A DNA stretch of 64,000 bases from an uncultured Clostridia bacterium (GCA_934141555.1 CAKPCK010000001.1:3163-67162); one strand, 5' to 3'. Shown: positions 10,813 to 63,900, counted from the first letter of the stretch. Notes: generated by a model not told the origin, from the sequence alone. A program made the numbers and translations.

Positions 10813-13311
10813 ATGAGAAATAAAAAAGAAAAAGGTATTTCAATGATAGCATTAATTGTAACTATAATAGTTTTAATGATTTTAGCAGTAGTATCAATAC
10901 AAATATTGAGAAGTGACAATGGAATAATAAATCAAGCTAATAATGCAAAAAAAAGTAAAGTTGCAAGTGAAGAGATAGAATCAGTAAAATGGGCTGCAGC
11001 ACAAGCAACAGGAGATGAAGAAAATGAAGCAGGAATATTAACTAATGATAATGGAAAAGATTTAATAGATAAATATTTAAAAAAATATATTGATGAAAAA
11101 GCAGAAGCTTCAGATCAATTAGATTACACAATATACCAACCAGGAGAAGTAGTTGAAGGAAAAGATATAGGTTTAACAAATGATGTATTTGTTGTTAAAT
11201 TTAAAGAATCAGAAAACATTTATATTATAGATACAGATGGAAACGTACATAAAGATACAGGTGGTAATATAAGTGAAGAAATTGCTAAAAGAGATGGTAT
11301 TATATTATCAAATGATACTATGGAAGTAAATAATGAAACAACACATACAATAACGATAACGACAAATGCTAAAGATTTGAAAATAACAAATTCAAATGAT
11401 TCTGTTATAGAATTAACAGAAAAAACTGATAAACAAATAACATTTGTTGCAAAAGCAATAGGAAGATCTACAATAACTGTGGAAACAGAAAATGGAAAGA
11501 AAGCAAGATGTTATGTATTAGTACATCAAGAACCAAAAAAATTAACCCTTGATGTTACAAATATAATGTTCGATTTATCAGAAAATATTAAAGAACATCA
11601 AGTTACAGCAACAATAGAACCAACGACAACAAATTATAATACAGAAATAACATGGACAAGTAGTAATCCAAGTGTTGCAGAAGTAAATTCTAGTGGAAAT
11701 CCAGATGGACAATTAAAATCTACAGCAACAATAGTAGCAAAATCAAATGGTACAGCAACAATAACAGCTTCAACACCGAATGGAGTAACAGCAACATGTG
11801 AAGTAACAGTACATACAACTCCACAATCTATATCAATAAGTGGAACATTTGAATTAGATTTAAGTACTAATAATACTGAAAAATTAAATGTTGTATATAA
11901 TCCAATAACATCAGATTATAGAAATATAATAAAATGGACAAGCAGTGATACGAATGTAGCTCAAATAGACCAACAAGGAAATGTAACAGGAGTATCAAAT
12001 GGAACGACAACAATAACTGCTGAGACAGAAAATGGAAAAACAGCAACATGTGAAGTAATAGTACATACAACTCCAAAATCAATAACTTTAAATAAATCAT
12101 CATTGATGCTTGATATTTCAGTTAATAATGCTGAGACATTATCTGTAGCAAGTTATAATCCAGATACTTCAGATATAAAGAGAGGAATAACATGGTCAAG
12201 TAATAATGCAGGAGTTGCAACAGTAGATAGTTTAACAGGAAAAGTAACAGCAAAATCAAATGGAAATGCAACAATAACAGCCACAACAGAAAATGGAAAA
12301 ACAGCAACATGTGAAGTAACGGTACATACAAGTCCAACGAAAATAACAATATCAGGAAAAACAGCATTAGATATAAGTGGGATTAACGGAAATAAATCTG
12401 AAAGGTTAACTGTTAATTATGAACCAGTAACATCAGATATTTATAGAGATATTACATGGGAAACTAGTAATGCTGGAATTGTAACAGTTAGTGGAGGAAC
12501 AATAACAGGTACGGCAAATGGAAGTGCTACAATAAAAGCAACTACACAAAATGGAAAAAATGCTAGTTGTTCTGTAGCTGTACAAACATCAATATCAAGT
12601 ATTTCATTAAACCATACTAGTGTAACGTTAGATTTAGTTGGAACAAAAACAGTGCAATTGACAGCAACTATAAATCCAGGAAGTCATACAGAAGGATATC
12701 ATTGGACAACTTCAAACCAAAATGTTGCATCAGTAAGTAATAGTGGATATGTAACAGGTAAAGCAAATGGAAGTGTTACAATTAAAGCAGTAAGTTCAAG
12801 TGGTAAAGTTTCTGCAAGTTGTAGTATAACAGTAAAAACTTCTGTTGCTGTAGCTAGTAATAGTACTAAGTCATCATATTCACTAGAAGGTGGATATACT
12901 ACAACAGTATGTCATGAAGAAGAAAAACATTGTGTAGAAGGAAATTGTATTGCATGGGATAGAACATGTGTTGAGTATGAAGAAGACTTTTGGGGAGCTG
13001 TTAAATGTCATTTTTGGGATCAAAAATGTACAGAACATGAAATAGTATGTCATGATGATTGTGTAGATGAAGAAGATATATGGCACAGTGGTTATACAAG
13101 AATTTCATTTAATTTAAATACTTCTGTAGATACAAGTAAACTAAAATTATCTTGGAGTGGATCTAATTCAGTTTCAATAAGCAGTTTATCAAAGAGTGGT
13201 ACAAAATATTCTTTTACATTGTATAATGATTCTAGTAGTTATGCTAAAGGAAGTGTTACATTAGTATATAAAGATTCAAATGTAACATTATATACATGGA
13301 CAATAAAATAA
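10813..13311 (+). CDS. Large pilin-like surface protein: class-III-type signal, about 6 Big_2 (Ig-like) modules, and a Cys-rich C-terminal module.
   Basis: N-terminus MRNKKEKG-ISMIALIVTIIVLMILAVV. Modules of about 88 aa repeat, each ending ...NGK.A.C.V.V(H/Q/K)(T/Q). A 10-Cys segment reads CHEEEKHCVEGNCIAWDRTCVEYEEDFWGAVKCHFWDQKCTEHEIVCHDDC. Confidence 0.7.
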   Translation: MRNKKEKGISMIALIVTIIVLMILAVVSIQILRSDNGIINQANNAKKSKVASEEIESVKWAAAQATGDEENEAGILTNDNGKDLIDKYLKKYIDEKAEASDQLDYTIYQPGEVVEGKDIGLTNDVFVVKFKESENIYIIDTDGNVHKDTGGNISEEIAKRDGIILSNDTMEVNNETTHTITITTNAKDLKITNSNDSVIELTEKTDKQITFVAKAIGRSTITVETENGKKARCYVLVHQEPKKLTLDVTNIMFDLSENIKEHQVTATIEPTTTNYNTEITWTSSNPSVAEVNSSGNPDGQLKSTATIVAKSNGTATITASTPNGVTATCEVTVHTTPQSISISGTFELDLSTNNTEKLNVVYNPITSDYRNIIKWTSSDTNVAQIDQQGNVTGVSNGTTTITAETENGKTATCEVIVHTTPKSITLNKSSLMLDISVNNAETLSVASYNPDTSDIKRGITWSSNNAGVATVDSLTGKVTAKSNGNATITATTENGKTATCEVTVHTSPTKITISGKTALDISGINGNKSERLTVNYEPVTSDIYRDITWETSNAGIVTVSGGTITGTANGSATIKATTQNGKNASCSVAVQTSISSISLNHTSVTLDLVGTKTVQLTATINPGSHTEGYHWTTSNQNVASVSNSGYVTGKANGSVTIKAVSSSGKVSASCSITVKTSVAVASNSTKSSYSLEGGYTTTVCHEEEKHCVEGNCIAWDRTCVEYEEDFWGAVKCHFWDQKCTEHEIVCHDDCVDEEDIWHSGYTRISFNLNTSVDTSKLKLSWSGSNSVSISSLSKSGTKYSFTLYNDSSSYAKGSVTLVYKDSNVTLYTWTIK

Positions 13312-35200: not shown

Positions 35201-35255
35201 ATTATAGAAAAGTTATTATTGGGAATTAAAATAGGAAACAATAGATTAAAAAAAA

Positions 35256-35284
35256 TTGACAAATTATGTAAAGTATAGTATAAT
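35256..35284 (+). promoter_or_regulatory. Consensus sigmaA promoter of the GC-rich orphan gene.
   Basis: TTGACA, 17-nt spacer, TATAAT; both hexamers are exact consensus. Confidence 0.7.
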
Positions 35285-35295
35285 TAAATTATCGA

Positions 35296-35312
35296 ATGAG
35301 GAAAGCCCTCAT
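35296..35312 (+). promoter_or_regulatory. Hairpin near the 5' end of the leader.
   Basis: atgagg-aaagc-cctcat, starting about 5 nt after the predicted transcription start. Confidence 0.5.
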
Positions 35313-35353
35313 ATAGTTCTTTGAGTAATCAGAGTAAAGGAGTGTGCAAAATA

Positions 35354-35686
35354 ATGTTCCAATTAAAGTTGGATCAAAAGATGACCAAGCTTCCCAAGGA
35401 AGTTTGCGAGGAACTCAATGGCATTCTCGCGGTGGAAGTGCCTGATTATGACTTTTTGTTTGATCAGGTGTCTAGGCTCGCAGATGCCCTTACCACTAAT
35501 CGGAAGGTCAAAAGCCTTTTCGTGGTCAAAGGGGAGTTCTCTGCTGATGGTGAGCCGTCGGCAAAACGCGAACAGCAGGAGAAGTGGCGGCATTTTGTTG
35601 ACCGCGATATCCTGTGGACTCTGTTCACGGGGAATGGCCGTGGCGATTATATCGTCTATATGGACATCCCCAAAGCAGCTGCCTAA
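35354..35686 (+). CDS. Orphan hypothetical protein (110 aa) in a high-GC island.
   Basis: ATG at 35354 lies 11 nt after AAAGGAG; the track's TTG at 35321 has no SD. Sampled 60-nt lines count 45% and 58% GC. All six frames are open here because stop codons are scarce. No motif recognised. Confidence 0.6.
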   Translation: MFQLKLDQKMTKLPKEVCEELNGILAVEVPDYDFLFDQVSRLADALTTNRKVKSLFVVKGEFSADGEPSAKREQQEKWRHFVDRDILWTLFTGNGRGDYIVYMDIPKAAA

Positions 35687-35734
35687 TCTTTGATTATGGC
35701 TAAGAAGTCGGTGGACAAATGTCTTCACCAAAGT

Positions 35735-35772
35735 GGTATGTGGATGTCAAAACATCTTACATGCCATTTTTT
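35735..35772 (+). terminator. Rho-independent terminator of the GC-rich orphan gene.
   Basis: ggtatgtggatgt / acatcttacatgcc imperfect stem (one bulge plus wobbles) followed by a T7 run. Confidence 0.65.
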
Positions 35773-35796
35773 TGTATATAATTATAGTATGTATTT

Positions 35797-37998: not shown

Positions 37999-38547
37999 AT
38001 GAAAAGTGATAAAGGAATTACCATGATAGCATTGGCAGCAATGCTTGTTATATTAATGATAATTGCTACTATTACAATGTATTATGGAAATAGTGCAATA
38101 AAAGAAGCAAAATTACAAGATTTAAAAACAAATATGTTATTAATTCAAGCAAATTTAAAAAATGATTTGGAAAAATATCATTTTGAAACTAATAATTTAA
38201 GTGCTGAAGAAAAAGAAAGTAAAAAATCAGAATATTTAAAAGGAAAAAAGTTATCTGATCCATTATGTGAAAAGGCAAAAACAGCATTTGATAAAATAAA
38301 TACTAATTCACAAATTGAGAAAAAAGTAAATGAAGACTATCAAAAAGTAAATGGAGAATTTGAATATTATTATTTAGATAGCAGTATATTGAAACAAATA
38401 GGATTAAATGATGTAAAAAGTGATGAAGAAGATGGTTATTATATTGTTGCATATAGTATGAATCCAACATATTCAAATATAGTTGAAGTAATAAATACTA
38501 AAGGTTATTTAGGAAATTATACATTAAGCAGAATAGAATTATTATAG
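37999..38547 (+). CDS. Pilin-like protein with a class-III-type signal (182 aa).
   Basis: N-terminus MKSDKG-ITMIALAAMLVILMIIATI parallels that of the 10813 gene. Good SD (AAAGGAG). Confidence 0.55.
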   Translation: MKSDKGITMIALAAMLVILMIIATITMYYGNSAIKEAKLQDLKTNMLLIQANLKNDLEKYHFETNNLSAEEKESKKSEYLKGKKLSDPLCEKAKTAFDKINTNSQIEKKVNEDYQKVNGEFEYYYLDSSILKQIGLNDVKSDEEDGYYIVAYSMNPTYSNIVEVINTKGYLGNYTLSRIELL

Positions 38548-52764: not shown

Positions 52765-52810
52765 TCAAAAGGGCTATACAGTCATAAAAATGATTGTATA
52801 ACCCTTTTGG
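52765..52810 (-). terminator. Rho-independent terminator.
   Basis: gggctatacagtca / tgattgtataaccc stem (wobbles on the minus strand) followed by a T run. Confidence 0.65.
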
Positions 52811-52824
52811 AATTGCTTGTAAAG

Positions 52825-53010
52825 TTATAACTTAAACATTTTATCATAATATTTATCTACATCTTTTTCACATTGAACAAAAAATTTTTTTCCATTATAA
52901 AAATAATAATTCATTCTTTTTGGAAAATATCTTACTTGACAAAATTTTTTTTCACAAAATGCACATTTGAGATTACTAATTAGTACGGAAAAAAAGCTAA
53001 CATTTTCCAT
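52825..53010 (-). CDS. Small Cys-containing hypothetical protein (61 aa).
   Basis: ATG lies 6 nt after AGGAGG. The CAFCEKKFC...C arrangement suggests a zinc-ribbon-like fold. Confidence 0.5.
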   Translation of the reverse strand: MENVSFFSVLISNLKCAFCEKKFCQVRYFPKRMNYYFYNGKKFFVQCEKDVDKYYDKMFKL

Positions 53011-53162
53011 AAAAACCTCCTGTCAAATGAAAAATTGTTAATAAAATTAAATGTTTCACTAAATAGTTATTTGGGTGATTAAGAAACAAATTATATTAGA
53101 AAGATTATCATAAGAAATATAAATTTACAATACTTTAGGTAAAAAAATGTCGAAATTTGTAA

Positions 53163-53238
53163 TGGTGCCACCAAGCAGAATCGAACTGCTGGCCTACGGG
53201 TTACGAATCCGTCGCTCTACCAACTGAGCTATAGTGGC
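53163..53238 (-). tRNA. tRNA-Thr (anticodon CGU) with encoded CCA.
   Basis: Manual cloverleaf: 7-bp acceptor stem, GCTC/GAGC D stem, anticodon loop TTCGTAA, GTTCGATTC T-loop, 3' CCA. There is one A-C mismatch at the base of the anticodon stem. Confidence 0.85.
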
Positions 53239-53323
53239 AAATACTAAATTAATATAACACAATTTATAAAAAATAACAAGAGATTTAAAGATAAATAAAT
53301 TATAAAAAATTCTTAGAAATATT

Positions 53324-54178
53324 CTAAGAATTTTTTTGTTCAATAATCAGACCATTCAAATAATTTAAAATACCAGCATCTGTTACAAAATTAAACTCTA
53401 ATTTAAAACTATTAAGCTGTTGATATTTATATCCAAATTGTTTATTTACTTTGTTAATACCATATTTGCCATCACCAACAATAGGATAACCTATATGAGC
53501 TAAATGTGCTCTAATTTGATGAGTTCGCCCAGTTTCAATATTAACTTCTAATAGAGAAGTATTATTATCAAATTCTTTTATTACAGAATAAGAAGTTATA
53601 ATTTTTTGATAACCAGGTTTAAAATCATCAGAAATATATACAAGAGATTTTTTATTATCTTTAAATAAATATGCTTCAAGTCTAGCCTTTTTTATTTTTG
53701 GGATTCCATAAACTAGAGCAGTATAAGATTTTTTTATTTCATGTTTTTTAAATTTATCAAATAAAATATTTAATGCAGTATCATTTTTTGCAAATAAAAC
53801 CAATCCAGTTGTATTCCTATCAAGTCTATGACATGGCATTGGATTTTGTTCTGGATATTTTTGATGTACTAGAGTTGTTAAACTATTTTCACCTACAACT
53901 TCAAGATTTATAGGTTTATTAATTACTAAAATATTATTATCTTCGAAAACAATATCTATATCAACTTTAGGGAAAAGCAAAGAATCAGCAATAAATATAT
54001 TTAATTCATCATTTTCAAAAATAGTACAATCTTTATTAACTCTTTTTCCGTTTATTTTAATATCTTTTTGTCTAAGAGCTTTATATAAAGTATTTTGAGA
54101 CAAATTTGGAAAAGATGTCAAAATAAAGTTGCAAAGTTTTTTTCCATTATATTTGTGAGTAACAATTAAAGTTTTCAA
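53324..54178 (-). CDS. RluA/RluD-family pseudouridine synthase with an S4-like N-terminal domain.
   Basis: HRLDRNTTG catalytic motif and GRTHQIRAH. Probable TTG start at 54178, 5 nt after GGAGG; the track ORF extends to 54238. Confidence 0.85.
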   Translation of the reverse strand: MKTLIVTHKYNGKKLCNFILTSFPNLSQNTLYKALRQKDIKINGKRVNKDCTIFENDELNIFIADSLLFPKVDIDIVFEDNNILVINKPINLEVVGENSLTTLVHQKYPEQNPMPCHRLDRNTTGLVLFAKNDTALNILFDKFKKHEIKKSYTALVYGIPKIKKARLEAYLFKDNKKSLVYISDDFKPGYQKIITSYSVIKEFDNNTSLLEVNIETGRTHQIRAHLAHIGYPIVGDGKYGINKVNKQFGYKYQQLNSFKLEFNFVTDAGILNYLNGLIIEQKNS

Positions 54179-55483: not shown

Positions 55484-57323
55484 ATTCGACTGTTACGGAT
55501 TTAGCAAGATTTCTTGGTTTATCAACATCTAATCCTTTTTCTTTAGAAATATAATAAGAAAGTAATTGTAAAGGAACAATTGCAACAATAGGTGAAAGAA
55601 GAATATTAGTATCTGGAATTTTAATAATTGTATCTATATTATTACTTGGCAATTCTTGATTTGTAATAACTAATGTTTTAGCACCACGAGTAATAACTTC
55701 TTGAATATTACTAATAGTTTTTTCAACTAAATTTTTATCTGTAATAATACTTATGACAGATATGCCATTTTCAATTAATGCAATAGGTCCATGTTTTAAT
55801 TCGCCAGCAGCATATGCTTCTGAATGTATATAAGAAATTTCTTTTAATTTTAAAGAAGCTTCAAGAGCAGTATTGTAATCAATACCTCTACCTAAGAAGA
55901 AAACATCTTTTTCTTGATAAATATTTTTTGCATAGTTTTTAATTTTTTCAGAAGATTTTAATGCTTCATCAATTTTATCTGGAAGATTAAAAATATCTTT
56001 TTTCAATTTTGCTAATTCTGAAGATGGAGTAGTTCCTAATATTTCAGCAAAATAAATTGCAAGAATTATAAGTAGCATAACTTGAGATGTATAGGCTTTT
56101 GTTGAAGCAACAGCAATTTCAGGGCCAGCATGTGTATAAATAGAGTAGTCAGCTTCTCTTGTAATAGAACTACCAATAACATTTGATACAGCAAGTGTTG
56201 TTGCTCCTTTTGATTTTGCAAGTTTTAATGCTGCAATAGTATCTGCTGTTTCACCAGATTGAGAGATGTAAATACATAAAGTATTTTTATCAATAATAGG
56301 ATTTCTATATCTAAATTCTGAAGCTATATCAACAGTAACTGGAATATTACATAAATTTTCAATTGCAATTTTTCCAGAAAGCCCAGCATGCATTGCAGTC
56401 CCACAAGCAACTATATATATTTTGTTTATTTTTGATAAAAATCCTTTTGTGAATTTTAAATCATCAAAATTACAAGGTTCATTTTCAGGTAAACGTGAAC
56501 CAATAGTTTCTCTTATTGCTGTTGGTTGTTCAAATATTTCTTTTAACATATAATCTTCAAAACCATTTTTATCTGCAGCACTAGCATTCCATTCTATACT
56601 TGTTAATTTTTTGTCTATTTTATTTAAATCAATATCAAAAAATTCAACATTGTCTCTTGAAATAAGAGCAAATTCATTATCATTTAAAAGATAAAAATCT
56701 TTTGTGAATGATAAAATTGCAGGAATATCTGAAGAAATATAATTTTCTCCATCACCTTTTCCTATAACAAGAGGGCTATCTTTTCTAATAACAATCATAT
56801 TGTCTGGCATATATTTTGAAATAACTTCAAGAGAGTAGCTTCCTTTAAATGATTTGCAAGCTTTTTGTACTGCACGTAAAACTTTTTTATTATCATTTTT
56901 TTTATCTTTTGAATAATAATAATGTATAAGATTTGGTATAATTTCTGTATCTGTTTGAGAATGAAATGTATAACCATTATCTAATAATAATTTTTTTAAA
57001 TCATTATAATTTTCAATAATTCCATTGTGAACAACAGCAAAACTATTACTATTATCTAAATGAGGATGTGCATTTTCTTTTGAAGGTTTTCCATGTGTTG
57101 CCCATCTTGTATGAGCAATTCCGACTGTTCCTTCAAGAGAATTTATTCCATCTAAATTATATAAGTTTCTAACTCTTCCTTTATCTTTCATAACTGAAAG
57201 ACCATTTTTTTCTATAGTTGATATTCCTGCAGAGTCATAACCTCTGTATTCAAGTCTTAAAAGACCATTAATTAAAATAGGACTAGCTTTTTGATGTCCT
57301 ATATATCCAATAATTCCACACAT
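55482..57323 (-). CDS. glmS: Glutamine--fructose-6-phosphate aminotransferase.
   Basis: MCGIIGY N-terminal nucleophile, two SIS domains, and the C-terminal DKPRNLAKSVTVE. Confidence 0.97.
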   Translation of the reverse strand: MCGIIGYIGHQKASPILINGLLRLEYRGYDSAGISTIEKNGLSVMKDKGRVRNLYNLDGINSLEGTVGIAHTRWATHGKPSKENAHPHLDNSNSFAVVHNGIIENYNDLKKLLLDNGYTFHSQTDTEIIPNLIHYYYSKDKKNDNKKVLRAVQKACKSFKGSYSLEVISKYMPDNMIVIRKDSPLVIGKGDGENYISSDIPAILSFTKDFYLLNDNEFALISRDNVEFFDIDLNKIDKKLTSIEWNASAADKNGFEDYMLKEIFEQPTAIRETIGSRLPENEPCNFDDLKFTKGFLSKINKIYIVACGTAMHAGLSGKIAIENLCNIPVTVDIASEFRYRNPIIDKNTLCIYISQSGETADTIAALKLAKSKGATTLAVSNVIGSSITREADYSIYTHAGPEIAVASTKAYTSQVMLLIILAIYFAEILGTTPSSELAKLKKDIFNLPDKIDEALKSSEKIKNYAKNIYQEKDVFFLGRGIDYNTALEASLKLKEISYIHSEAYAAGELKHGPIALIENGISVISIITDKNLVEKTISNIQEVITRGAKTLVITNQELPSNNIDTIIKIPDTNILLSPIVAIVPLQLLSYYISKEKGLDVDKPRNLAKSVTVE

Positions 57324-57349
57324 TTGTGAATCCTCCTTAAAATAGTTTG

Positions 57350-57535
57350 ATAGGGGCTATTAAAGTCAAAAGTCCCTTATATGCGGAATTGAAATATACT
57401 TATGTATTAATTTCTGTTACAACATTACATTGTTTTTTGTTATAATACTTTGGCTTAAGCTAAGCCACTAGAGCATCCGCCGAAAATTCGATAAACTCTA
57501 GACCTCGTCAACACATTTGTGCTCTGGCGCTTAAT
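57350..57535 (-). ncRNA. glmS: glmS ribozyme (GlcN6P-dependent self-cleaving riboswitch).
   Basis: The minus strand reads AGCGCCAGAGC...TTGACGAGG...GTTTATCGAATTTTCGGCGGATGC, matching the conserved core. It lies in the glmS 5' leader. Confidence 0.85.
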
Positions 57536-57630
57536 AAATAACTCCTTTCTTAATTTATTTTTTAATATTTCAATTTCTGTATTATATTATAATATATTAA
57601 ATATTTGTGCAAGTCTTTTGTTTAAAATAT

Positions 57631-57668
57631 ATAAAAAGCTATAAGAAATTATTCTTATAGCTTTTATT
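57631..57668 (-). terminator. Terminator of paralog cassette 1.
   Basis: agctataagaa-atta-ttcttatagct perfect 11-bp stem flanked by A/T runs. Near-identical to the element at 59098-59136. Confidence 0.85.
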
Positions 57669-57730
57669 TGAATGATTAAACTTATAGTTTGATCTAATAA
57701 TTGAACTTATGAGAAGGTGACATTTGATTA

Positions 57731-58921
57731 TTAATCAAGATAGTCAGAATTAAAGTCAATGTTAAATGGAGAATTTTTAGTAAAAGATGAATCAATCATA
57801 TTCCAAATATCACATACCAAATAAGTTGTAGGCGAGTCAAGTGTCCCATACTGTACCCAAACTAATTCAGTGGGTGGAATTTTGGAATGATAAAAACTAG
57901 TAGAATGCTTACGTCCCCATTTTGCACGAACTTTCTTTTTTGGTGGATAATGTTGTGAGCCAGTTCCATAAGGTATTGCTAAAATATCATCCAAACCATT
58001 GTCGACAATCTGGTAATAGAGTGCTTGAGCATATTGAGAAGATTCAATTGGTTTAGAACCAATTTCATGAGTTACTTCTTTAAATGCTTTTTCTAAAAGC
58101 TCACTCTGTTTTTCACTTGAAGTTTTTTTGAACAATGGGAAAGCGATAATTGCTTTTCTCCATACTGCTGAAATAATTTGATAAGAATTAGCAGTATGGT
58201 AAGAGTGTGGATAACAAATATGCAATACATTCAGGAAGTTTCCATTTAGTACATGAAAACCAGTAACATAAAGCTGAAGCTTATCGATAATATCCAAAAA
58301 ATTGGAAGTCATCTTATCATAGTAGTTATTTGCAATTTTGAGAACAGAGCCCTCAAAAAAGAAACTTATTGGTTCATTAGAAGAGTCCCAAAGAAATGGA
58401 AATGTAGATTTTAAAACAGAAACAACCTGCAGTTTTCTGAAAATTGCAGTAGAATTAAGAATATTTTTTTCCGATTCAGTAAGAACATTTTTGTCAAATT
58501 CGTAAGAATCAGTTGTTATAACTTTAACATTATTTCCGTTAATGGAAATATTAAAAGTAATGATAATCTTACAAAAAGTAGAAAATTTTCGAATAGAATC
58601 AGGAATGCGATAACCATGATTTAACTTATGCCAAATATTAAAACTATATGATTTTGTATTAGAATTGTATACAATTTCATCAGAAACGAACCAAGAATTA
58701 CATTCACAATATTTCCGAAGAAAACTTTTCAGATGATAGGCGAAAATAGCACCATAAACTTCTTTACGAATATTCGAATTCGACTTGATTTGACTGTCAA
58801 TTTTATTGATATGTGCTCTAATAAGTGGACAATCATAAAAATCAATATTATGAGATTGAATTAAAGAATTCAAAGGGTTACCAGTAATAGAAATTTCTAA
58901 ATTCTGATTGAAGTTTTTCAT
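57731..58921 (-). CDS. Uncharacterised protein, paralog 1 (396 aa, AT-rich copy).
   Basis: The MKNFNQ start at 58921 lies 8 nt after AGGAGG. About 50% identical by eye to the 59185-60474 product, sharing blocks NIDFYDC, DSYEFDK, NGNFLN, ANSYQIISAVWRKAI, SSEKQ.ELLEKAF, YAQA.YYQIVDN, ELVWVQYG and TTYLV. Confidence 0.75.
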   Translation of the reverse strand: MKNFNQNLEISITGNPLNSLIQSHNIDFYDCPLIRAHINKIDSQIKSNSNIRKEVYGAIFAYHLKSFLRKYCECNSWFVSDEIVYNSNTKSYSFNIWHKLNHGYRIPDSIRKFSTFCKIIITFNISINGNNVKVITTDSYEFDKNVLTESEKNILNSTAIFRKLQVVSVLKSTFPFLWDSSNEPISFFFEGSVLKIANNYYDKMTSNFLDIIDKLQLYVTGFHVLNGNFLNVLHICYPHSYHTANSYQIISAVWRKAIIAFPLFKKTSSEKQSELLEKAFKEVTHEIGSKPIESSQYAQALYYQIVDNGLDDILAIPYGTGSQHYPPKKKVRAKWGRKHSTSFYHSKIPPTELVWVQYGTLDSPTTYLVCDIWNMIDSSFTKNSPFNIDFNSDYLD

Positions 58922-58935
58922 AAACATATCCTCCT

Positions 58936-59018
58936 ATAATGTATGTGTTTAAAAAAAGTAGTATACCAAAAATAAAACCTCCTTATAAGTTCTTTATATT
59001 TCAATGTACGATAGATAT
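58936..59018 (-). promoter_or_regulatory. Conserved 5' leader of cassette 1 with an internal SD-like AAGGAGG.
   Basis: The minus strand reads atcgtacattgaaa...gaactt.taaggaggttt.tatttt, shared with cassette 2. No start codon lies at SD distance from the decoy. Confidence 0.5.
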
Positions 59019-59046
59019 ATTATAACATATTATTATAAAAAAGCAA
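59019..59046 (-). promoter_or_regulatory. SigmaA promoter of cassette 1.
   Basis: On the minus strand: TTGCTT, 16-nt spacer, TATAAT. Confidence 0.6.
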
Positions 59047-59097
59047 TATAATTGAATATGACGAATGATTATAAGAAAGATAGAAAAATATGAAATA

Positions 59098-59136
59098 CCA
59101 AAAAAGCTACGAGAAATTATTCTCATAGCTTTTTTG
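59098..59136 (-). terminator. Terminator of paralog cassette 2.
   Basis: agctacgagaa-atta-ttctcatagct. This is an 11-bp stem with one U-G wobble in the minus sense, flanked by A/T runs. Confidence 0.85.
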
Positions 59137-59184
59137 GTTAGTCTGTTAAACCATAAGAATACAGTTTAACAGGGGAACTTTGTT

Positions 59185-60474
59185 TTACTCGAAATCATCA
59201 CCACCATCGGTGTCATCATCGTCAGCGTTGGTATCATCCAGCGAAGAGTAAATGTTTACCGAAACGATGTTGAATGCGGAATTGGGGGTGAAAGTTTCGG
59301 CAATCATATGCCAAAGTTCACCCACCAAATAGGTGGTGCGGTTTTCCTGAGAGCCATACTGGACCCACACCAGTTCAGAAGGGGCCATCTTGGAATGATC
59401 AAACTGCTCAAATTCCTCATCGGAGGTAAGCAGAGTTGCCTTTGCGTTGATGTTGTCTTCACGACCCCATCTTGCACAAACCTTCTTCTTTGCAGGGAAG
59501 GGAAGTGCGCCAGCCCCACGAGGAACTGCCAAAAGGTTATCCAGATTGTTGTCAACAATCTGGTAATAAATGGCCTGAGCATATGCCAAAGCATTAAGCT
59601 GCTTAGAGCCAATTTCCTTCTTTACCTCGGAAAAGGCCTTCTCCAGAAGCTCTGCCTGCTTTTCGCTGGAAAGCTTCTTGAACATGGGGAAGACAACGAT
59701 AGCCTTCCGCCATACTGCAGAAATGATCTGGTAGCTGTTTGCTGAGTAGTAACTCCGCGGATAGCAGAAGTTCAGGGCATTCAGAAAGTTGCCGTTGGCC
59801 AACTTGAAGTTTGCCAGATAGTCCTTCACCTCGCTGATGGCAGCCTGGAAGCTGTTGAGCATCTTACCATAATAGGTGTTAGATACTCGAAGAACATTTC
59901 CTTCGAAAACGAAGTTTTTCTGTACCATTTCGGTAACAGGTTCTTTGTCAATACCATAGTGAACTTCGCCAAAGATAAGCGAAGTATTAGGAACAGGTAC
60001 TACAGAAATGTTTTTGAGAGTGACACCAGAAATCATGGTCTTTTTGTCAAACTCATAAGAGTCAGCAGTTACAACCTTAACGGCCTGGCCTGTAAAGGCT
60101 ACGGTGACATTGATGATGAATTTGACAAATGTTTTGGTTTTGAACCCCAAGTGATCGATGCTGTATCCAGAGCTGATCTTGTTCGCGAGGTCGAAACTGT
60201 ACGTTCCGGCACTACGATTGTAGGTCATTTTATTGGATACAGTCCAATTGCCGTTGGCACAATGCCGACGGAAAATCGAAACGAGCTGTGCTGCAAAAAC
60301 AGCACCATAAACCTCATTACGAGTTTTGGCACTTGCGGAAATCTTCTCATTGATTTTGGCGATATGTGCTCTTACCAGAGCACAATCATAAAAGTCGATG
60401 TTGTGAGCCTGCTTGAGTGCATCCATAGTGCCTTCTGCGATGCGGACTTCAAAATTCTGATTAAAGCTTTTCAT
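59185..60474 (-). CDS. Uncharacterised protein, paralog 2 (429 aa, GC-rich copy with a polyacidic C-terminal tail).
   Basis: ATG lies 8 nt after GGAGGA. Sampled 60-nt lines count 45%, 52% and 58% GC. Antisense and off-frame ORFs stay open because stops are scarce. The tail reads DDTNADDDDTDGGDDFE. Confidence 0.75.
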   Translation of the reverse strand: MKSFNQNFEVRIAEGTMDALKQAHNIDFYDCALVRAHIAKINEKISASAKTRNEVYGAVFAAQLVSIFRRHCANGNWTVSNKMTYNRSAGTYSFDLANKISSGYSIDHLGFKTKTFVKFIINVTVAFTGQAVKVVTADSYEFDKKTMISGVTLKNISVVPVPNTSLIFGEVHYGIDKEPVTEMVQKNFVFEGNVLRVSNTYYGKMLNSFQAAISEVKDYLANFKLANGNFLNALNFCYPRSYYSANSYQIISAVWRKAIVVFPMFKKLSSEKQAELLEKAFSEVKKEIGSKQLNALAYAQAIYYQIVDNNLDNLLAVPRGAGALPFPAKKKVCARWGREDNINAKATLLTSDEEFEQFDHSKMAPSELVWVQYGSQENRTTYLVGELWHMIAETFTPNSAFNIVSVNIYSSLDDTNADDDDTDGGDDFE

Positions 60475-60488
60475 AATATATTTCCTCC

Positions 60489-60580
60489 AAAGTCGATAAA
60501 TAAAAAATGCATAATATAGGGGAAAATAGAAACCTCCTTGTAAAGTTCCCTATATGTGTTTCAATGTACGATATATATGT
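60489..60580 (-). promoter_or_regulatory. Conserved 5' leader of cassette 2 with an internal SD-like AAGGAGG inside a hairpin loop.
   Basis: The minus strand reads atcgtacattgaaacacatatagggaactttacaaggaggtttctattttcccctata. The tataggg/ccctata 7-bp stem encloses the decoy SD. Confidence 0.5.
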
Positions 60581-60609
60581 ATTATAGCACACTATTTTTA
60601 AAAAGTCAA
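60581..60609 (-). promoter_or_regulatory. SigmaA promoter of cassette 2.
   Basis: On the minus strand: TTGACT, 17-nt spacer, TATAAT. Confidence 0.65.
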
Positions 60610-60661
60610 TATATTATGTAAAATCTGCCATGTAGTAAATATGTAAAATATATAAAAAATA

Positions 60662-60691
60662 TTGACAAATATAATTATGATATGATATAAT
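60662..60691 (+). promoter_or_regulatory. SigmaA promoter with extended -10, candidate rpoB promoter.
   Basis: TTGACA, 18-nt spacer, TGaTATAAT, about 295 nt upstream of rpoB. Confidence 0.55.
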
Positions 60692-60985
60692 TATATGCGT
60701 ATAAATTTGCAAATTGGTAATTTTTAGAAATTATCAGATTTAATTCAAAATGATAAAATTTAGAAAAATAAGAATTAAATATAAGTAAAATAAAGGGAGA
60801 AAATTGTAGAGCAGACAATGATCAAAACTTTACGAAACTATATTTTAAGAGGGGATTTTTCTAATTAAATATTATTCTCGTAAGAAAACTAGCCAAGCCA
60901 TTACTTAAATATGGCATTTTTCTTTAAATGGCAGAATTTCAAACGAAACAAAAAGCTGCTTAATATTTTATAAGGAGTGATTTTT

Positions 60986-63900
60986 TTGGAAATCAAAGAT
61001 GTTAAATTCGGAAGAACAACCCGTAAAGATTTCTCAAAAGTTGGCGATTTTATAGAAATGCCAAACTTAATTAAAGTTCAAAAAGATTCTTATGACTGGT
61101 TTATTGAAGAAGGATTAGGAGAAGTATTAAAAGATATTTCACCAATCATAGACTATTCAGGAAATCTAGTATTAGAATTTTTTGACTACTACATGGAAGA
61201 AAAGACAAAATATACAGAAGAAGAAGCAAAAGAAAGAGATGCAACATATTCTACAAGATTACACGTAAAAGTAAGATTAATAAACCGTGAATCAGGTGAA
61301 ATCAAAGAACAAGAAATTTATTTAGGTGATTTCCCACTAATGACAGAAAGTGGAACATTTATAATAAATGGTGCAGAAAGAGTTGTAGTTAGTCAATTAG
61401 TACGTTCACCAGGATGTTACTATGATGAAATATTTGATACAAAAACAGGAAAGAAAACATATACATCAACAATTATGCCATTAAGAGGGGCATGGTTAGA
61501 ATATGAAACAGATGGAAATGATATATTCTGGGTACGTGTTGATAGAACAAGAAAAATTCCAATTACAACATTATTAAGAGCAATTGGATTAGTATCAGAT
61601 GACCAAATAAGAGCATTATTCGGAGATGAAGCATTACTAGAAACAACAATACAAAAAGATCCAATAAAAACAGGTGAAGAAGCATTAATCGAAATTTACA
61701 AAAAATTAAGACCTGGAGAATTACCAACAGTAGAAGCTGCAAAAAGCTTATTTAATGGATTATTCTTTGACAATAGAAGATATGATTTAGCAAAAGTAGG
61801 AAGATATAAATTTAACCAAAAATTAAGTATCGCAAACAGAATAAAAAATCAAGTTGCATTTGAAGATATTATGGATAAAGAAACAGGAGAAGTTTTTGTT
61901 GCAGCAGGAGAAGTTATTTCAGCAGAAGCAGCAGAAGCAATCCAGAATGCAGGTATAAATGTAGTAGATATTAAGTTTGGAGAGAAAAAATTAAGAATAA
62001 TTGGTAATGGAATAGTAAATATTCATTCAGTATTACCAAATGTAGACTTAAGCAGCTTACATATAAAAGAATATGTAAATTATGAAGTATTAAAAAATAT
62101 AATGGAAAATACTTCTGAAGAAGAATTAGTTAAAACATTAAAACAAAGAGAAGAAGAACTAGTTCCAAAATATATAACAACAGAAGACATGATAGCATCA
62201 ATAAACTATTTATTAAATATGTATCATGGATATGGAAAAGCTGATGATATAGATCACTTAGCAAATCGTAGAATAAGATGTGTTGGAGAATTATTACAAA
62301 ATCAATTCAGAATTGGTTTAGCAAGACTTGAAAGAGTTGTTCGTGAAAGAATGACAATTCAAGACTTAGATGTTATAACACCACAATCATTAATAAACAC
62401 AAAACCAATAACATCATCAATAAGAGAATTCTTTGGAAGTTCACAATTATCACAATTCATGGATCAAACAAACCCATTATCAGAATTAACACATAAAAGA
62501 AGAATTTCAGCATTAGGACCTGGTGGTTTGTCAAGAGAAAGAGCAGGATTCGAAGTTCGTGATATTCATTATACACATTATGGTAGATTATGTCCAATTG
62601 AATCTCCAGAAGGACCAAACATTGGATTAATTTCAGCATTATCATCATTTGCTAATATAAATGAATATGGATTTATTGAAACACCATATAGAAAAGTAGA
62701 TCCAGAAACACATAGAGTAACAGATATTGTTGAATATATGAGTGCAGATGTTGAAGATAATTACATGATAGCACAAGCATCTGAACCAATGAATGAAAAC
62801 AATGAATTCATAAATAAGCGTGTTCGTGTAAGACATAGAAATGAAATTATAGAAGTTGATAAAGAATTAGTACAATATGTTGATGTATCACCAAAACAAT
62901 TAGTATCAATTGCAGCTGCAATGATTCCATTCTTGGAAAATGATGATGCTAAAAGATCTTTAATGGGATCAAACATGCAACGTCAAGCAGTTCCATTAAT
63001 GACATCAGAAGCACCAATTATAGCAACAGGTATTGAATATAGAGCAGCAAAAGATTCAGGAATATTAATATTAGCTGAAGATGATGGTGTTGTAGAAAAA
63101 GTTACTGGTGACAGTATCACAATGAAATATAACAATGGTAAAACAGTTGTACATAAACTACGTAAATTCAAAAGAACAAATGGTGGAACATGTATCAATC
63201 AAAGACCAATAGTTAGAAAAGGTGAAATAGTTAAAAAAGGTGATGCGTTAGCAGATGGACCAGCAACAAAAGATGGAGAAATGGCATTAGGTAAAAACAT
63301 GTTAGTAGCATTCTCAACATGGGAAGGTTACAACTATGAGGATGCTATTCTTTTAAATGAAAGATTAGTACAAGAAGACATATTTACATCAATACATATT
63401 GAAGAATATGATTGTGAATGTCGTGATACAAAATTAGGCCCAGAAGAAATAACAAGAGATATACCAAATGTTGGAGATGACGCATTAAAAGATCTTGATG
63501 AAAATGGTATTATTAGAATAGGTGCAGAAGTAAGGCCTGGAGATATATTAGTTGGTAAAGTTACTCCAAAAGGAGAAACAGACTTAACAGCAGAAGAAAG
63601 ATTACTTCGTGCAATATTTGGAGAAAAAGCTAGAGAAGTAAGAGATACATCACTTCGTGTACCACATGGTGAAGCTGGAACAATTGTTGATGTAAAAATA
63701 TTTACAAGAGACAATTCAGAAGAATTAGGACCTGGAGTAAATCAAGTAATTAGATGTTATATTGCTACAAAGAGAAAAATATCAGTTGGAGATAAAATGG
63801 CTGGACGTCATGGTAACAAAGGTGTTATTTCAAGAATATTACCAAAAGAAGATATGCCATTCTTACCAGATGGAACACCAATAGACATTTTATTAAACCC

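Follow-up and report, generated by a model that had tools for sequence, protein, structure and literature searches.

Strain-variable loci of the kind considered here include the S-layer (slpA) cassette of C. difficile and the flagellin, pilin and O-antigen loci. Replacement flexible genomic islands have been linked to phage predation and to exposed structures (PMC4033161). In the cry3A mRNA, a 30S ribosomal subunit on an untranslated Shine-Dalgarno sequence (SD) of the stabilising type (STAB-SD) blocks RNase J1, and 3' stem-loops guard against 3' exonucleases (PMC4113751). In the hbs mRNA of B. subtilis there is functional pairing between the 5' and 3' untranslated regions (UTRs) and protection by initiating ribosomes (PMC5737220). 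The locus described here has features that resemble those of all three systems. It lies in a 64,000 nt stretch of DNA from an uncultured Clostridia bacterium (GCA_934141555.1, CAKPCK010000001.1:3163-67162), referred to throughout as the window, in which two tandem minus-strand gene cassettes, A and B, stand between rpoB and glmS. The locus is a strain-variable replacement island holding one orphan gene family; the original prediction, made from the window sequence by itself, had missed the island.

The island is bounded by the conserved rpoB promoter region on one side and the conserved promoter and ribozyme of glmS on the other. These flanks are 91–98% identical between strains and the boundaries of the island are sharp, with breakpoints at about 60645/60600 on the rpoB side and 57620–57630 on the glmS side. 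In the related contigs L010 and L096 the island is 79.6% identical to the window and contains three tandem copies of the gene, while L099, L100, L101 and L107 have a single copy and no nucleotide similarity to the window inside the island. Divergent alternative contents at the same site between conserved flanks are the arrangement of a replacement flexible genomic island. The encoded proteins form five classes: I (A, B and a third type, C), II (P0008), III (P0009 and L099), IV (P0007) and V (P0010, P0012 and P0011). Identity between classes is 18–33% overall, falling to 10–31% in the hypervariable N-terminal domain (N-domain) and reaching 24–39% in the better conserved C-terminal domain (C-domain).

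Allele class disagrees with host relatedness. The glmS genes of L099 (class III) and L010 (class I) are separated by a synonymous divergence (dS) of only 0.107, and their alleles are 22–25% identical; L099 and L107 are both class III despite a glmS dS of 0.242. Within a class, synonymous divergence is 2–4 times that of glmS in the same contigs, dS between the window and L010 being 1.04 for B, 0.74 for A and 0.25 for glmS. This excess would fit an ordinary, fast-evolving pair of orphan paralogs, shaped by high local mutation in a highly transcribed, probably head-on gene together with relaxed constraint and with no contribution from balancing selection or the exchange of alleles, as would the position of the genes on the minus strand when some 40 of the 46 large open reading frames (ORFs) and the cumulative GC skew favour the plus strand. 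As the genes are probably highly transcribed and oriented head-on to replication, a raised local mutation rate may contribute to the divergence, but it cannot explain the discordant allele classes. A two- to fourfold rise in rate cannot give 20% identity beside 95% identical flanks, glmS on the same strand is not accelerated, and both the sharp boundaries of the island and a ratio of non-synonymous to synonymous divergence (omega) of about 0.15, which indicates constraint, argue the same way. Simple rapid evolution is thus an improbable account of the locus.

Omega is 0.14–0.18 overall and is relaxed in residues 144–200 of B (0.68) and in the C-terminal tail. Since selection is purifying overall, neither window copy is a pseudogene, with values of approximately 0.15–0.18 against the L010 orthologs. 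The third copy of L010, type C, is present or absent as a unit bounded exactly by two terminator ends, with 57628/57630 of the window corresponding to both 4964 and 6554 of L010, and this fits unequal crossing-over between repeated cassette ends. A type C copy on L008 (4485-5491) is split into ORFs of 84 and 252 amino acids (aa), although L009, L010 and L096 each have it intact (441 aa); either a frameshift that made it a pseudogene or an error of assembly may account for the split.

The non-coding parts of the cassettes had been described as well conserved, and this was confirmed. Between A and B identity is 73% over the 135 nt upstream and 58% over the 95 nt downstream, far above shuffled sequences (at most 24% and 16%, respectively), although the synonymous sites of the two genes are saturated (proportion of synonymous differences 0.81). 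Two causes had been proposed, selection on the whole expression unit or its homogenisation, and it is the first that stands. Each cassette is closer to its ortholog in L010 than to its paralog in the same genome, at 83% (B) and 79% (A) upstream and 84% and 78% downstream; therefore there is no concerted evolution, and the regulatory parts are under purifying selection. Ongoing gene conversion between the tandem cassettes has one fitting site, where both window leaders have CGTACATTG and L010 copies 1 and 2 have CGCACATTG. With identities that track orthology on both sides of the genes, and a tree of the coding parts identical to that of the non-coding parts, conversion is very improbable, and homogenisation of the non-coding parts was rejected on the comparison of orthologs with paralogs.

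The gene-neighbourhood survey found a fixed location between rpoB and glmS. In all contigs with readable flanks the family gene or genes adjoin rpoB and/or glmS, one flank being the divergently transcribed rpoB-rpoC and the other the glmS ribozyme and glmS, followed by genes for an M23 peptidase and a pseudouridine synthase. It had been asked whether homologs always occur in pairs; they do not, there being one to three tandem copies per locus and a single copy in most strains. No flanking gene is shown on L015, where the upstream sequence resembles the rpoB-proximal spacer of the window by eye, without blastn similarity. All of the contigs checked are low in G+C and the majority are from human-gut cohort assemblies, the carriers being one clade of uncultured gut Clostridia with 26% G+C. 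The window genes include spoIIGA/sigE-type genes and ftsA/ftsZ, and the host is therefore a member of the spore-forming Clostridia. The closest GTDB genome, an uncultured Clostridia metagenome-assembled genome (MAG) whose RpoB is 94% identical at the amino-acid level, does not contain the family gene; upstream of its rpoB there is a pilin-like gene instead. The P0008 allele is found on 17 contigs, all shorter than 5 kb, and the six that are shown stop in the flanking genes or close to them, no more than about 1 kb from the P0008 gene. This is the behaviour expected of assemblies where co-existing strains differ, and breaks at a strain-variable locus would explain why it is missing from MAG representatives.

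No integrase, insertion sequence (IS) element or repeat resembling an attachment site (att) is present at the locus, and the family has no relative in PHROGs or IMG/VR that would make it part of a phage or mobile element. There is no template-like repeat of a diversity-generating retroelement in 57300-61000 and no reverse transcriptase domain among the annotated neighbours, part of the window having been annotated. Neither flanking inverted repeats nor, by eye, long homopolymer tracts were found, and an invertible promoter or phase-variation repeats were rejected for that reason.

Some further observations concern the flanks and other parts of the window. On the plus strand a promoter matching the consensus at 12 of 12 positions, with an upstream TG, lies at 60662-60691, about 50 bp from the B promoter and back to back with it, directed towards rpoB. 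The rpoB start codon is TTG at 60986 and the gene is not preceded by rplJ-rplL, unlike in most Firmicutes. The glmS ribozyme (57394-57542, 78.7 bits) is served by a separate promoter, situated immediately below the border of the island (region 57394-57620, minus strand), and the glmS leader carries AGAAATTGAAAT and GAAAGGAG, which are similar to the cassette leader motifs ACATTGAAA and AAGGAGG. Prepilin-type N-termini (KGITLIALV...) occur in several proteins (window 10813-13311 and 37999-38547; L016 1582-3063; L095 7249-7572), and in the closest GTDB MAGs one such protein stands upstream of rpoB in place of the family gene. Between the pseudouridine-synthase and response-regulator genes there is another variable spot (window 52768-53330, L010 10872-14708): L010 has additional ORFs here that amount to about 3.5 kb and encode 147, 421, 310 and 110 aa, none of them matching Pfam; the tRNA-bearing segment at window 53156-53286 is inverted in L010 relative to the window.

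Both minus-strand ORFs are present where they had been predicted, and each is part of a self-contained cassette with its own promoter, leader, SD, ORF and terminator (Table 1). The start of copy A is ATG 58921, as had been assumed, since the spacing of the AGGAGG is right for this codon only; the first in-frame ATG, at 58927, is too near the SD. The identity of the two products, estimated by eye at about 50%, is 48% by BLASTP (196/411, E = 1e-139), and all of the conserved blocks listed earlier are found in the alignment: NIDFYDC, DSYEFDK, ANSYQIISAVWRKAI, SSEKQxELLEKAF, YAQAxYYQIVDN, KKKVxAxWGR and ELVWVQYG. An identical copy B protein is encoded on 8 contigs from different cohorts. The family proteins are soluble, of about 380–440 aa, with an isoelectric point (pI) of approximately 8.2–8.8 for most alleles. 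The absence of a signal peptide and transmembrane segment extends from the two window proteins to the family, the highest Kyte-Doolittle value over 19 residues being 1.54 among 11 members, none of which has a hydrophobic N-terminus.

Table 1. Features of the replacement island and its two cassettes, in window coordinates.
Feature	Position	Strand	Remarks
Strain-variable replacement island, both cassettes	~57630..60645	-	blastn of window against related contigs
Copy A ORF	57731..58921	-	396 aa; GC 30%; no acidic tail
Copy B ORF	59185..60474	-	429 aa; GC 45%; acidic C-terminal tail
Copy B promoter (predicted)	60581..60609	-	TTGACT-17-TATAAT; TG upstream of -10; 11/12 matches in promoter scan
Copy A promoter (predicted)	59019..59046	-	TTGCTT-16-TGT-TATAAT; extended -10, weak -35
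Copy B leader	60475..60574	-	~100 nt, length inferred from -10 box
Copy A leader	58922..59012	-	~91 nt, length inferred from -10 box
5'-end motif CGTACATTGAAA, B leader	60559..60570	-	conserved
CGTACATTGAAA, A leader	58999-59010	-	
GGGAACTT, B leader	60543..60550	-	reverse complement of AAGTTCCC
Upstream SD-like AAGGAGG, B leader	60533..60539	-	~60 nt before start codon; no start codon at translating distance
Upstream AAGGAGG, A leader	58978-58984	-	
True SD of copy B, GGAGG	60484..60488	-	9 nt before ATG
True SD of copy A, AGGAGG	58930-58935	-	8 nt before ATG
AAGTTCCC, 3' of B	59173..59180	-	begins 5 nt past stop codon; complementary to leader GGGAACTT
First 3' hairpin of B	59143..59172	-	13-bp stem, no T run
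Intrinsic terminator of B	59088..59138	-	19-bp stem and T run
CACCTTCTCATAAGTTC, 3'UTR of A	57703..57719	-	complementary to A-leader GAACTTATAAGGAGGT, which spans the upstream SD-like sequence
Intrinsic terminator of A	57625..57665	-	14-bp stem and T run

The family had been called unassignable, and the searches bear this out. The two window proteins gave nothing above noise against Pfam, NCBIfam, PHROGs and PADLOC, five distant members had no match in Pfam, and none of the 11 members matched Pfam or PADLOC (PADLOC-DB 2.0). A search of the PDB sequences was empty both for a single sequence and for the family profile, and a literature search for the protein motifs found no paper. The family amounts to five clusters among 5.8 billion proteins, and a full HMMER search with the family profile found about seven among 1.84 billion representatives. 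No member was found in 185,579 GTDB species representatives scanned with family patterns, in a hidden Markov model search of 80 rpoB loci from relatives, or in IMG/VR.

The AlphaFold model of copy A is confident when the distant members are included (11 sequences; predicted local distance difference test score, pLDDT, 83.4; predicted template modelling score, pTM, 0.78), and these are needed, the pLDDT being 48 with six close sequences only. Structure prediction and fold search likewise assigned no family, as Foldseek with this model found no match at E < 0.001 in the PDB and none in BFVD. In the model the N-domain (approximately residues 1–222) has long helices on an antiparallel sheet and includes a poorly predicted, indel-rich loop at about 143–186. 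The C-domain (approximately 226–375) has five helices and then a three-stranded sheet that bears the KKKV-x-x-x-WGR sequence. The best Foldseek matches, TBP-like, DUF4468 and START-like domains (PDB 4jhy, 4e6f), share the helices on an antiparallel sheet of the N-domain, but with E of 0.018–0.033 and template modelling scores of 0.18–0.39 they are below the reliable threshold and leave the C-domain uncovered, so this is a resemblance only. The family is a new one, with two domains and a fold unmatched in the libraries searched.

There are 19 invariant columns, largely hydrophobic or aromatic (Y29, F94, F187, G227, FP261-262, Y302, W335, WV355-356 and Y358). The invariant polar residues are Q272 and D311, and N25, C31, K99, G336, R337 and S384 are nearly invariant. 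In agreement with the original prediction, which recognised no enzyme motif, no catalytic constellation is visible by eye among these columns. For this reason the product is inferred to be a binding or structural, non-enzymatic protein.

A surface location is one interpretation of such a protein: an abundant antigen or lattice protein, resembling an S-layer protein or flagellin, that is exported by a non-classical route, with the N-domain exposed to phages or host immunity and the C-domain serving for anchoring or assembly. The size and pI of the proteins, the variable N-domain joined to a conserved C-domain, an expression design that appears suited to very high output, and the replacement of cassettes between conserved flanks, as in the islands of PMC4033161, are all compatible with it. 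The slpA cassette of C. difficile is a similar case. However, besides the missing signal peptide, transmembrane segment and hydrophobic N-terminus, an in-frame N-terminal extension is impossible and no secretion genes are adjacent. No SLH, CWB2 or other wall-binding domain was found that would suggest an S-layer protein, there is no Pfam match to flagellin or pilin, and the N-terminus is not prepilin-like. The family has neither a toxin fold nor a Pfam toxin domain of the Cry, Cyt or parasporal kind. A surface lattice or antigen, which would need non-classical export of a protein with no signal peptide, transmembrane segment or anchoring domain, is an unlikely identity for the product.

Judging from the boxes, both promoters are of the sigma-A type, that of copy B being near consensus; the -35 box of copy A was read by eye and is under the threshold of the promoter scan. 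An ACATAAT-ATTGACT...TATAAT block is common to the promoters of all allele classes. The pattern TATAAT-N-RYACATTGAAA occurs in the window at these two sites only, against a chance expectation of 0. The leaders had been reported to share an exact 14-mer; the sharing is real and the length is greater, a 15-mer within a 20-nt block of 19/20 identity. ACATTGAAA or a close variant is present in a 5'-proximal position in the leaders of most alleles. Structured RNA leaders were considered and rejected, since folding of the leaders is no more stable than that of shuffles (z = 0.34 for B). Rfam matched only the glmS ribozyme in the region, besides spurious miRNA matches on a terminator, with none in the leaders.

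Each gene is followed by two 3' hairpins, of which the second is a long-stem intrinsic terminator, a stable G+C-containing hairpin followed by a T run that is also of the form of a 3' retroregulator. The 3'UTR of B folds at -41.9 kcal/mol (z = -10.9) and that of A has a z of -5.7. As had been counted, the terminator stems of A and B differ at three positions; one of these differences is a compensatory change of G-C to A-T and another is U.G to U-A. Compensatory changes in the terminators are seen between allele classes as well as between the cassettes. Within the 3'UTR comparison AAGTTC, at the AAGTTCCC site, is an invariant block.

Of the 11 leaders, 10 contain an additional GGAGG or AAGGAGG, located approximately 20–35 nt into the transcript and 55–70 nt ahead of the true SD; only P0007, with its short leader, lacks it. 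The chance of a GGAGG in a leader of about 70 nt and 25% G+C is estimated at approximately 0.005. The sequence is SD-like, complementary to the 3' end of 16S rRNA and far 5' of the real SD, and this conserved leader element therefore resembles, by analogy, an upstream sequence of the STAB-SD type. Class I leaders have no ATG or GTG 5–10 nt after it, copy A having a TTG at the head of a 6-codon ORF. In the leaders of L099, L108, L013 and L111 there is an ATG 6–8 nt after the upstream SD, directly followed by TAA or TAG.

The most conserved blocks of the class I leaders and 3'UTRs, GGGAACTT and AAGTTCCC, are mutually complementary. In copy A the duplex is 16 nt long, spans the upstream SD and has a predicted energy of -22.3 kcal/mol, which none of 300 shuffles reached. 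Two further cassettes are significant by this comparison, L010_2 (5/300 shuffles) and L010_3 (4/300), giving statistical support in three of the nine cassettes tested. The pairing is of 8–9 nt in B, L010_1 and L010_3 and of 7 nt with a bulge in L010_2; class V alleles have another 9-nt pair, UGUUGUGAU with AUCACAACA directly after the stop codon. These patterns are suggestive of functional leader/3'UTR pairing.

The codon usage of the family is anomalous, and the avoidance of A-ending codons in all alleles was missed in the original prediction. Copy B is the strongest G+C outlier of the window, at 43–48% against 19–35% elsewhere. The G+C fraction at third codon positions (GC3) is 0.05–0.15 in 44 host ORFs, 0.52 in copy B, 0.21 in copy A and 0.17–0.43 in other alleles; third-position A accounts for 57% in the same host genes, 15% in B, 25% in A and 17–36% in the other alleles. 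The host-favoured codons ATA, TTA, AGA, CCA, GGA, ACA and TCA are avoided. Their place is taken chiefly by T-ending codons in copy A (third-position T 0.54) and by C-, G- and T-ending codons in copy B, in which CAG makes up 100% of Gln and AAG 66% of Lys. The usual translational selection of the host was provisionally rejected as the cause, there being no such shift in rplI of a sister MAG (third-position A 0.70), the one ribosomal protein gene examined, or in rpoB and ftsZ of the window. An overlapping antisense gene was also rejected. Antisense ORFs do occur in the codon-aligned frame of the GC-rich copies (window 59308-59745 and 59959-60519, plus strand; L096 3151-4467, minus strand, 439 codons), and they are long because TTA, CTA and TCA are nearly absent; the frame, nearly open in B, is nevertheless broken in the window copy, copy A has about 13 antisense stops as estimated from codon fractions, and these ORFs are an unconserved by-product.

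The candidate explanations for the bias are a foreign origin followed by amelioration and a force intrinsic to the locus. Under the first, the cassettes would be recent imports from a phage, a plasmid or a GC-richer bacterium, ameliorated to different degrees, B and C being recent and A and classes III and IV older. The order of GC3 values fits this, from 0.52 (B) through 0.40–0.43 (B and C of L010) to 0.17–0.21 (A, L099, P0007), as do the differences between B and A at identical residues, which are mainly directional transitions (C in B with T in A, 33 against 11 in reverse; G in B with A in A, 21 against 2). The pyrimidine-ending fraction, steady at 0.62–0.67 in every class I gene independently of GC3, and the ordinary codons of the sister-MAG gene for ribosomal protein L9 are further points in its favour. 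However, there is no homolog outside the locus in 15 billion proteins, GTDB or IMG/VR, and the integrase, IS element and att-like repeats of a mobile element are missing. The promoter, leader and terminators are host-like, AT-rich and common to all alleles, and the amino-acid composition is inside the host range (Gly, Ala, Arg and Pro together 0.09–0.20; Phe, Tyr, Met, Ile, Asn and Lys together 0.33–0.42). A raised GC3 is seen in all alleles and all hosts and thus seems to belong to the locus itself, and a recent foreign import has little probability. An intrinsic force could be codon or mRNA selection in one highly expressed transcript, or a mutational bias linked to transcription or recombination.

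A second G+C-rich island was seen at window 35250-35790 on the plus strand (39% G+C in 35201-35600). It holds a 110-aa ORF of about 50% G+C (35354-35686, MFQLKLDQKMTKLPKEV...) with a perfect TTGACA-17-TATAAT on its 5' side (~35258-35286) and a hairpin with a T run on its 3' side. There is no Pfam or Rfam match to this ORF, and 5.8 billion proteins contain a single cluster for it, 99% identical. In this it is like copy B, also an orphan gene of foreign composition with a strong promoter to itself.

Taken together, the locus is probably an arms-race replacement locus, with stabilised, highly expressed cassettes of an orphan protein whose diversity is kept by balancing selection. The design of the cassettes would maximise the life and output of the mRNA, as in the cry3A and hbs mRNAs. 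A 30S subunit or 70S ribosome parked on the upstream SD, with its start-stop mini-ORF in four allele leaders, may block 5'-to-3' decay, the 3' hairpins may block 3' exonucleases, and in several cassettes the leader may pair with the sequence directly past the stop codon. Together these devices would lead to a protein made in large, stoichiometric amounts, and both cassettes are predicted to be very highly and stably expressed. Alleles or whole arrays would move from lineage to lineage by homologous recombination through the conserved flanks at rpoB and glmS and be maintained by negative frequency-dependent selection, with copy number shifting through unequal crossing-over between the repeated cassette ends. 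A and B would be old paralogs, each under purifying selection, and so would provide two specificities. The variable N-domain may be the recognising or the recognised surface and the conserved C-domain a common functional or assembly core.

As for the role of the protein, its participation in an arms race with a phage or a competitor, as sensor, decoy or target, is proposed tentatively, the phage being the likeliest partner. More doubtful is a new kind of bacterial variability locus, in which the abundant protein would be a strain-specific recognition molecule, for example a surface lattice exported by a non-classical route or a new stoichiometric sensor of phages or decoy for them. Its deeply divergent alleles would be exchanged through the rpoB and glmS homology arms, and its mRNA would be the only recoded and end-protected transcript in a drift-dominated genome. 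An array of immunity-type proteins, cytoplasmic non-enzymatic binders directed against the polymorphic toxins of competitors, would also account for diverged tandem paralogs that vary between strains, have no catalytic motif and appear cytoplasmic, and the other GC-rich orphan ORF of the window, which has a consensus promoter to itself, is compatible with it. The proteins are, however, 2–4 times the size of typical immunity proteins, most strains have a single copy, and there is neither an adjacent toxin gene or secretion system nor a match to a Pfam immunity family. The chance that this is the function is accordingly slight.

Several points weigh against the proposed arms-race locus. The family comprises about 12 distinct sequences in all, every one from metagenome contigs. 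The product lacks an export signal, while classical replacement islands encode exposed structures, and a role in defence is without direct support, as there is no effector-like domain and no match to known anti-phage systems in PADLOC. The foreign codon composition is not accounted for by the model, and the raised within-class dS may owe something to a locally higher mutation rate. High expression is read from signals in the sequence; the leaders, taken alone, are no more structured than shuffles, and the leader/3'UTR duplex is not significant for copy B (33/300) or L010_1 (58/300).

If the inference holds, this is a compact, readily followed strain-typing and arms-race locus of uncultured human-gut Clostridia that can be amplified from its rpoB and glmS flanks. 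Its reach is narrow, being confined to one uncultured clade and about a dozen distinct sequences, and its role is putative. The locus accounts for the breaks in the MAGs of this clade at the site. Since the libraries searched contain no sequence or structural relatives of the family, its structure and partners would be new to biology. The cassette appears to unite known mRNA-protecting devices, namely the upstream SD, the start-stop mini-ORF, pairing of the 5' and 3'UTRs and tandem 3' hairpins, and its natural variants are material for the study of mRNA stabilisation in Firmicutes. The avoidance of A-ending codons, which stands out because the sister-MAG rplI and the window rpoB and ftsZ have no codon selection, is a testable case of selection or of a mutational process acting on a single transcript.

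Compared with the replacement flexible islands (PMC4033161), the locus is tiny (1.3–4.5 kb) and contains nothing but copies of a single orphan gene, signals for export or anchoring are missing from the product, and the alleles, although only 18–33% identical, are homologous. It shares with them the use of the same site, the conserved flanks, the sharp boundaries, the divergent contents of the same functional type and a distribution of alleles that does not follow the clonal frame. In contrast to the cry3A unit of B. thuringiensis (PMC4113751), the cassettes encode a protein without relation to Cry, Cyt or any other toxin fold, their stabilisation is a prediction, and four allele leaders have an ATG-stop mini-ORF after the upstream SD. 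Like that unit, the cassettes have a sigma-A-type promoter, a long leader with a distant SD-like sequence, strong 3' stem-loops and a protein without a signal peptide, and in class I a start codon at translating distance from the upstream SD is missing. There is no sequence relationship to the hbs (HBsu) mRNA (PMC5737220), and the predicted pairing is statistically supported for three of the nine cassettes tested. The two are nevertheless alike as predicted mRNAs of an abundant protein, with a strong SD and a leader segment complementary to the 3'UTR.

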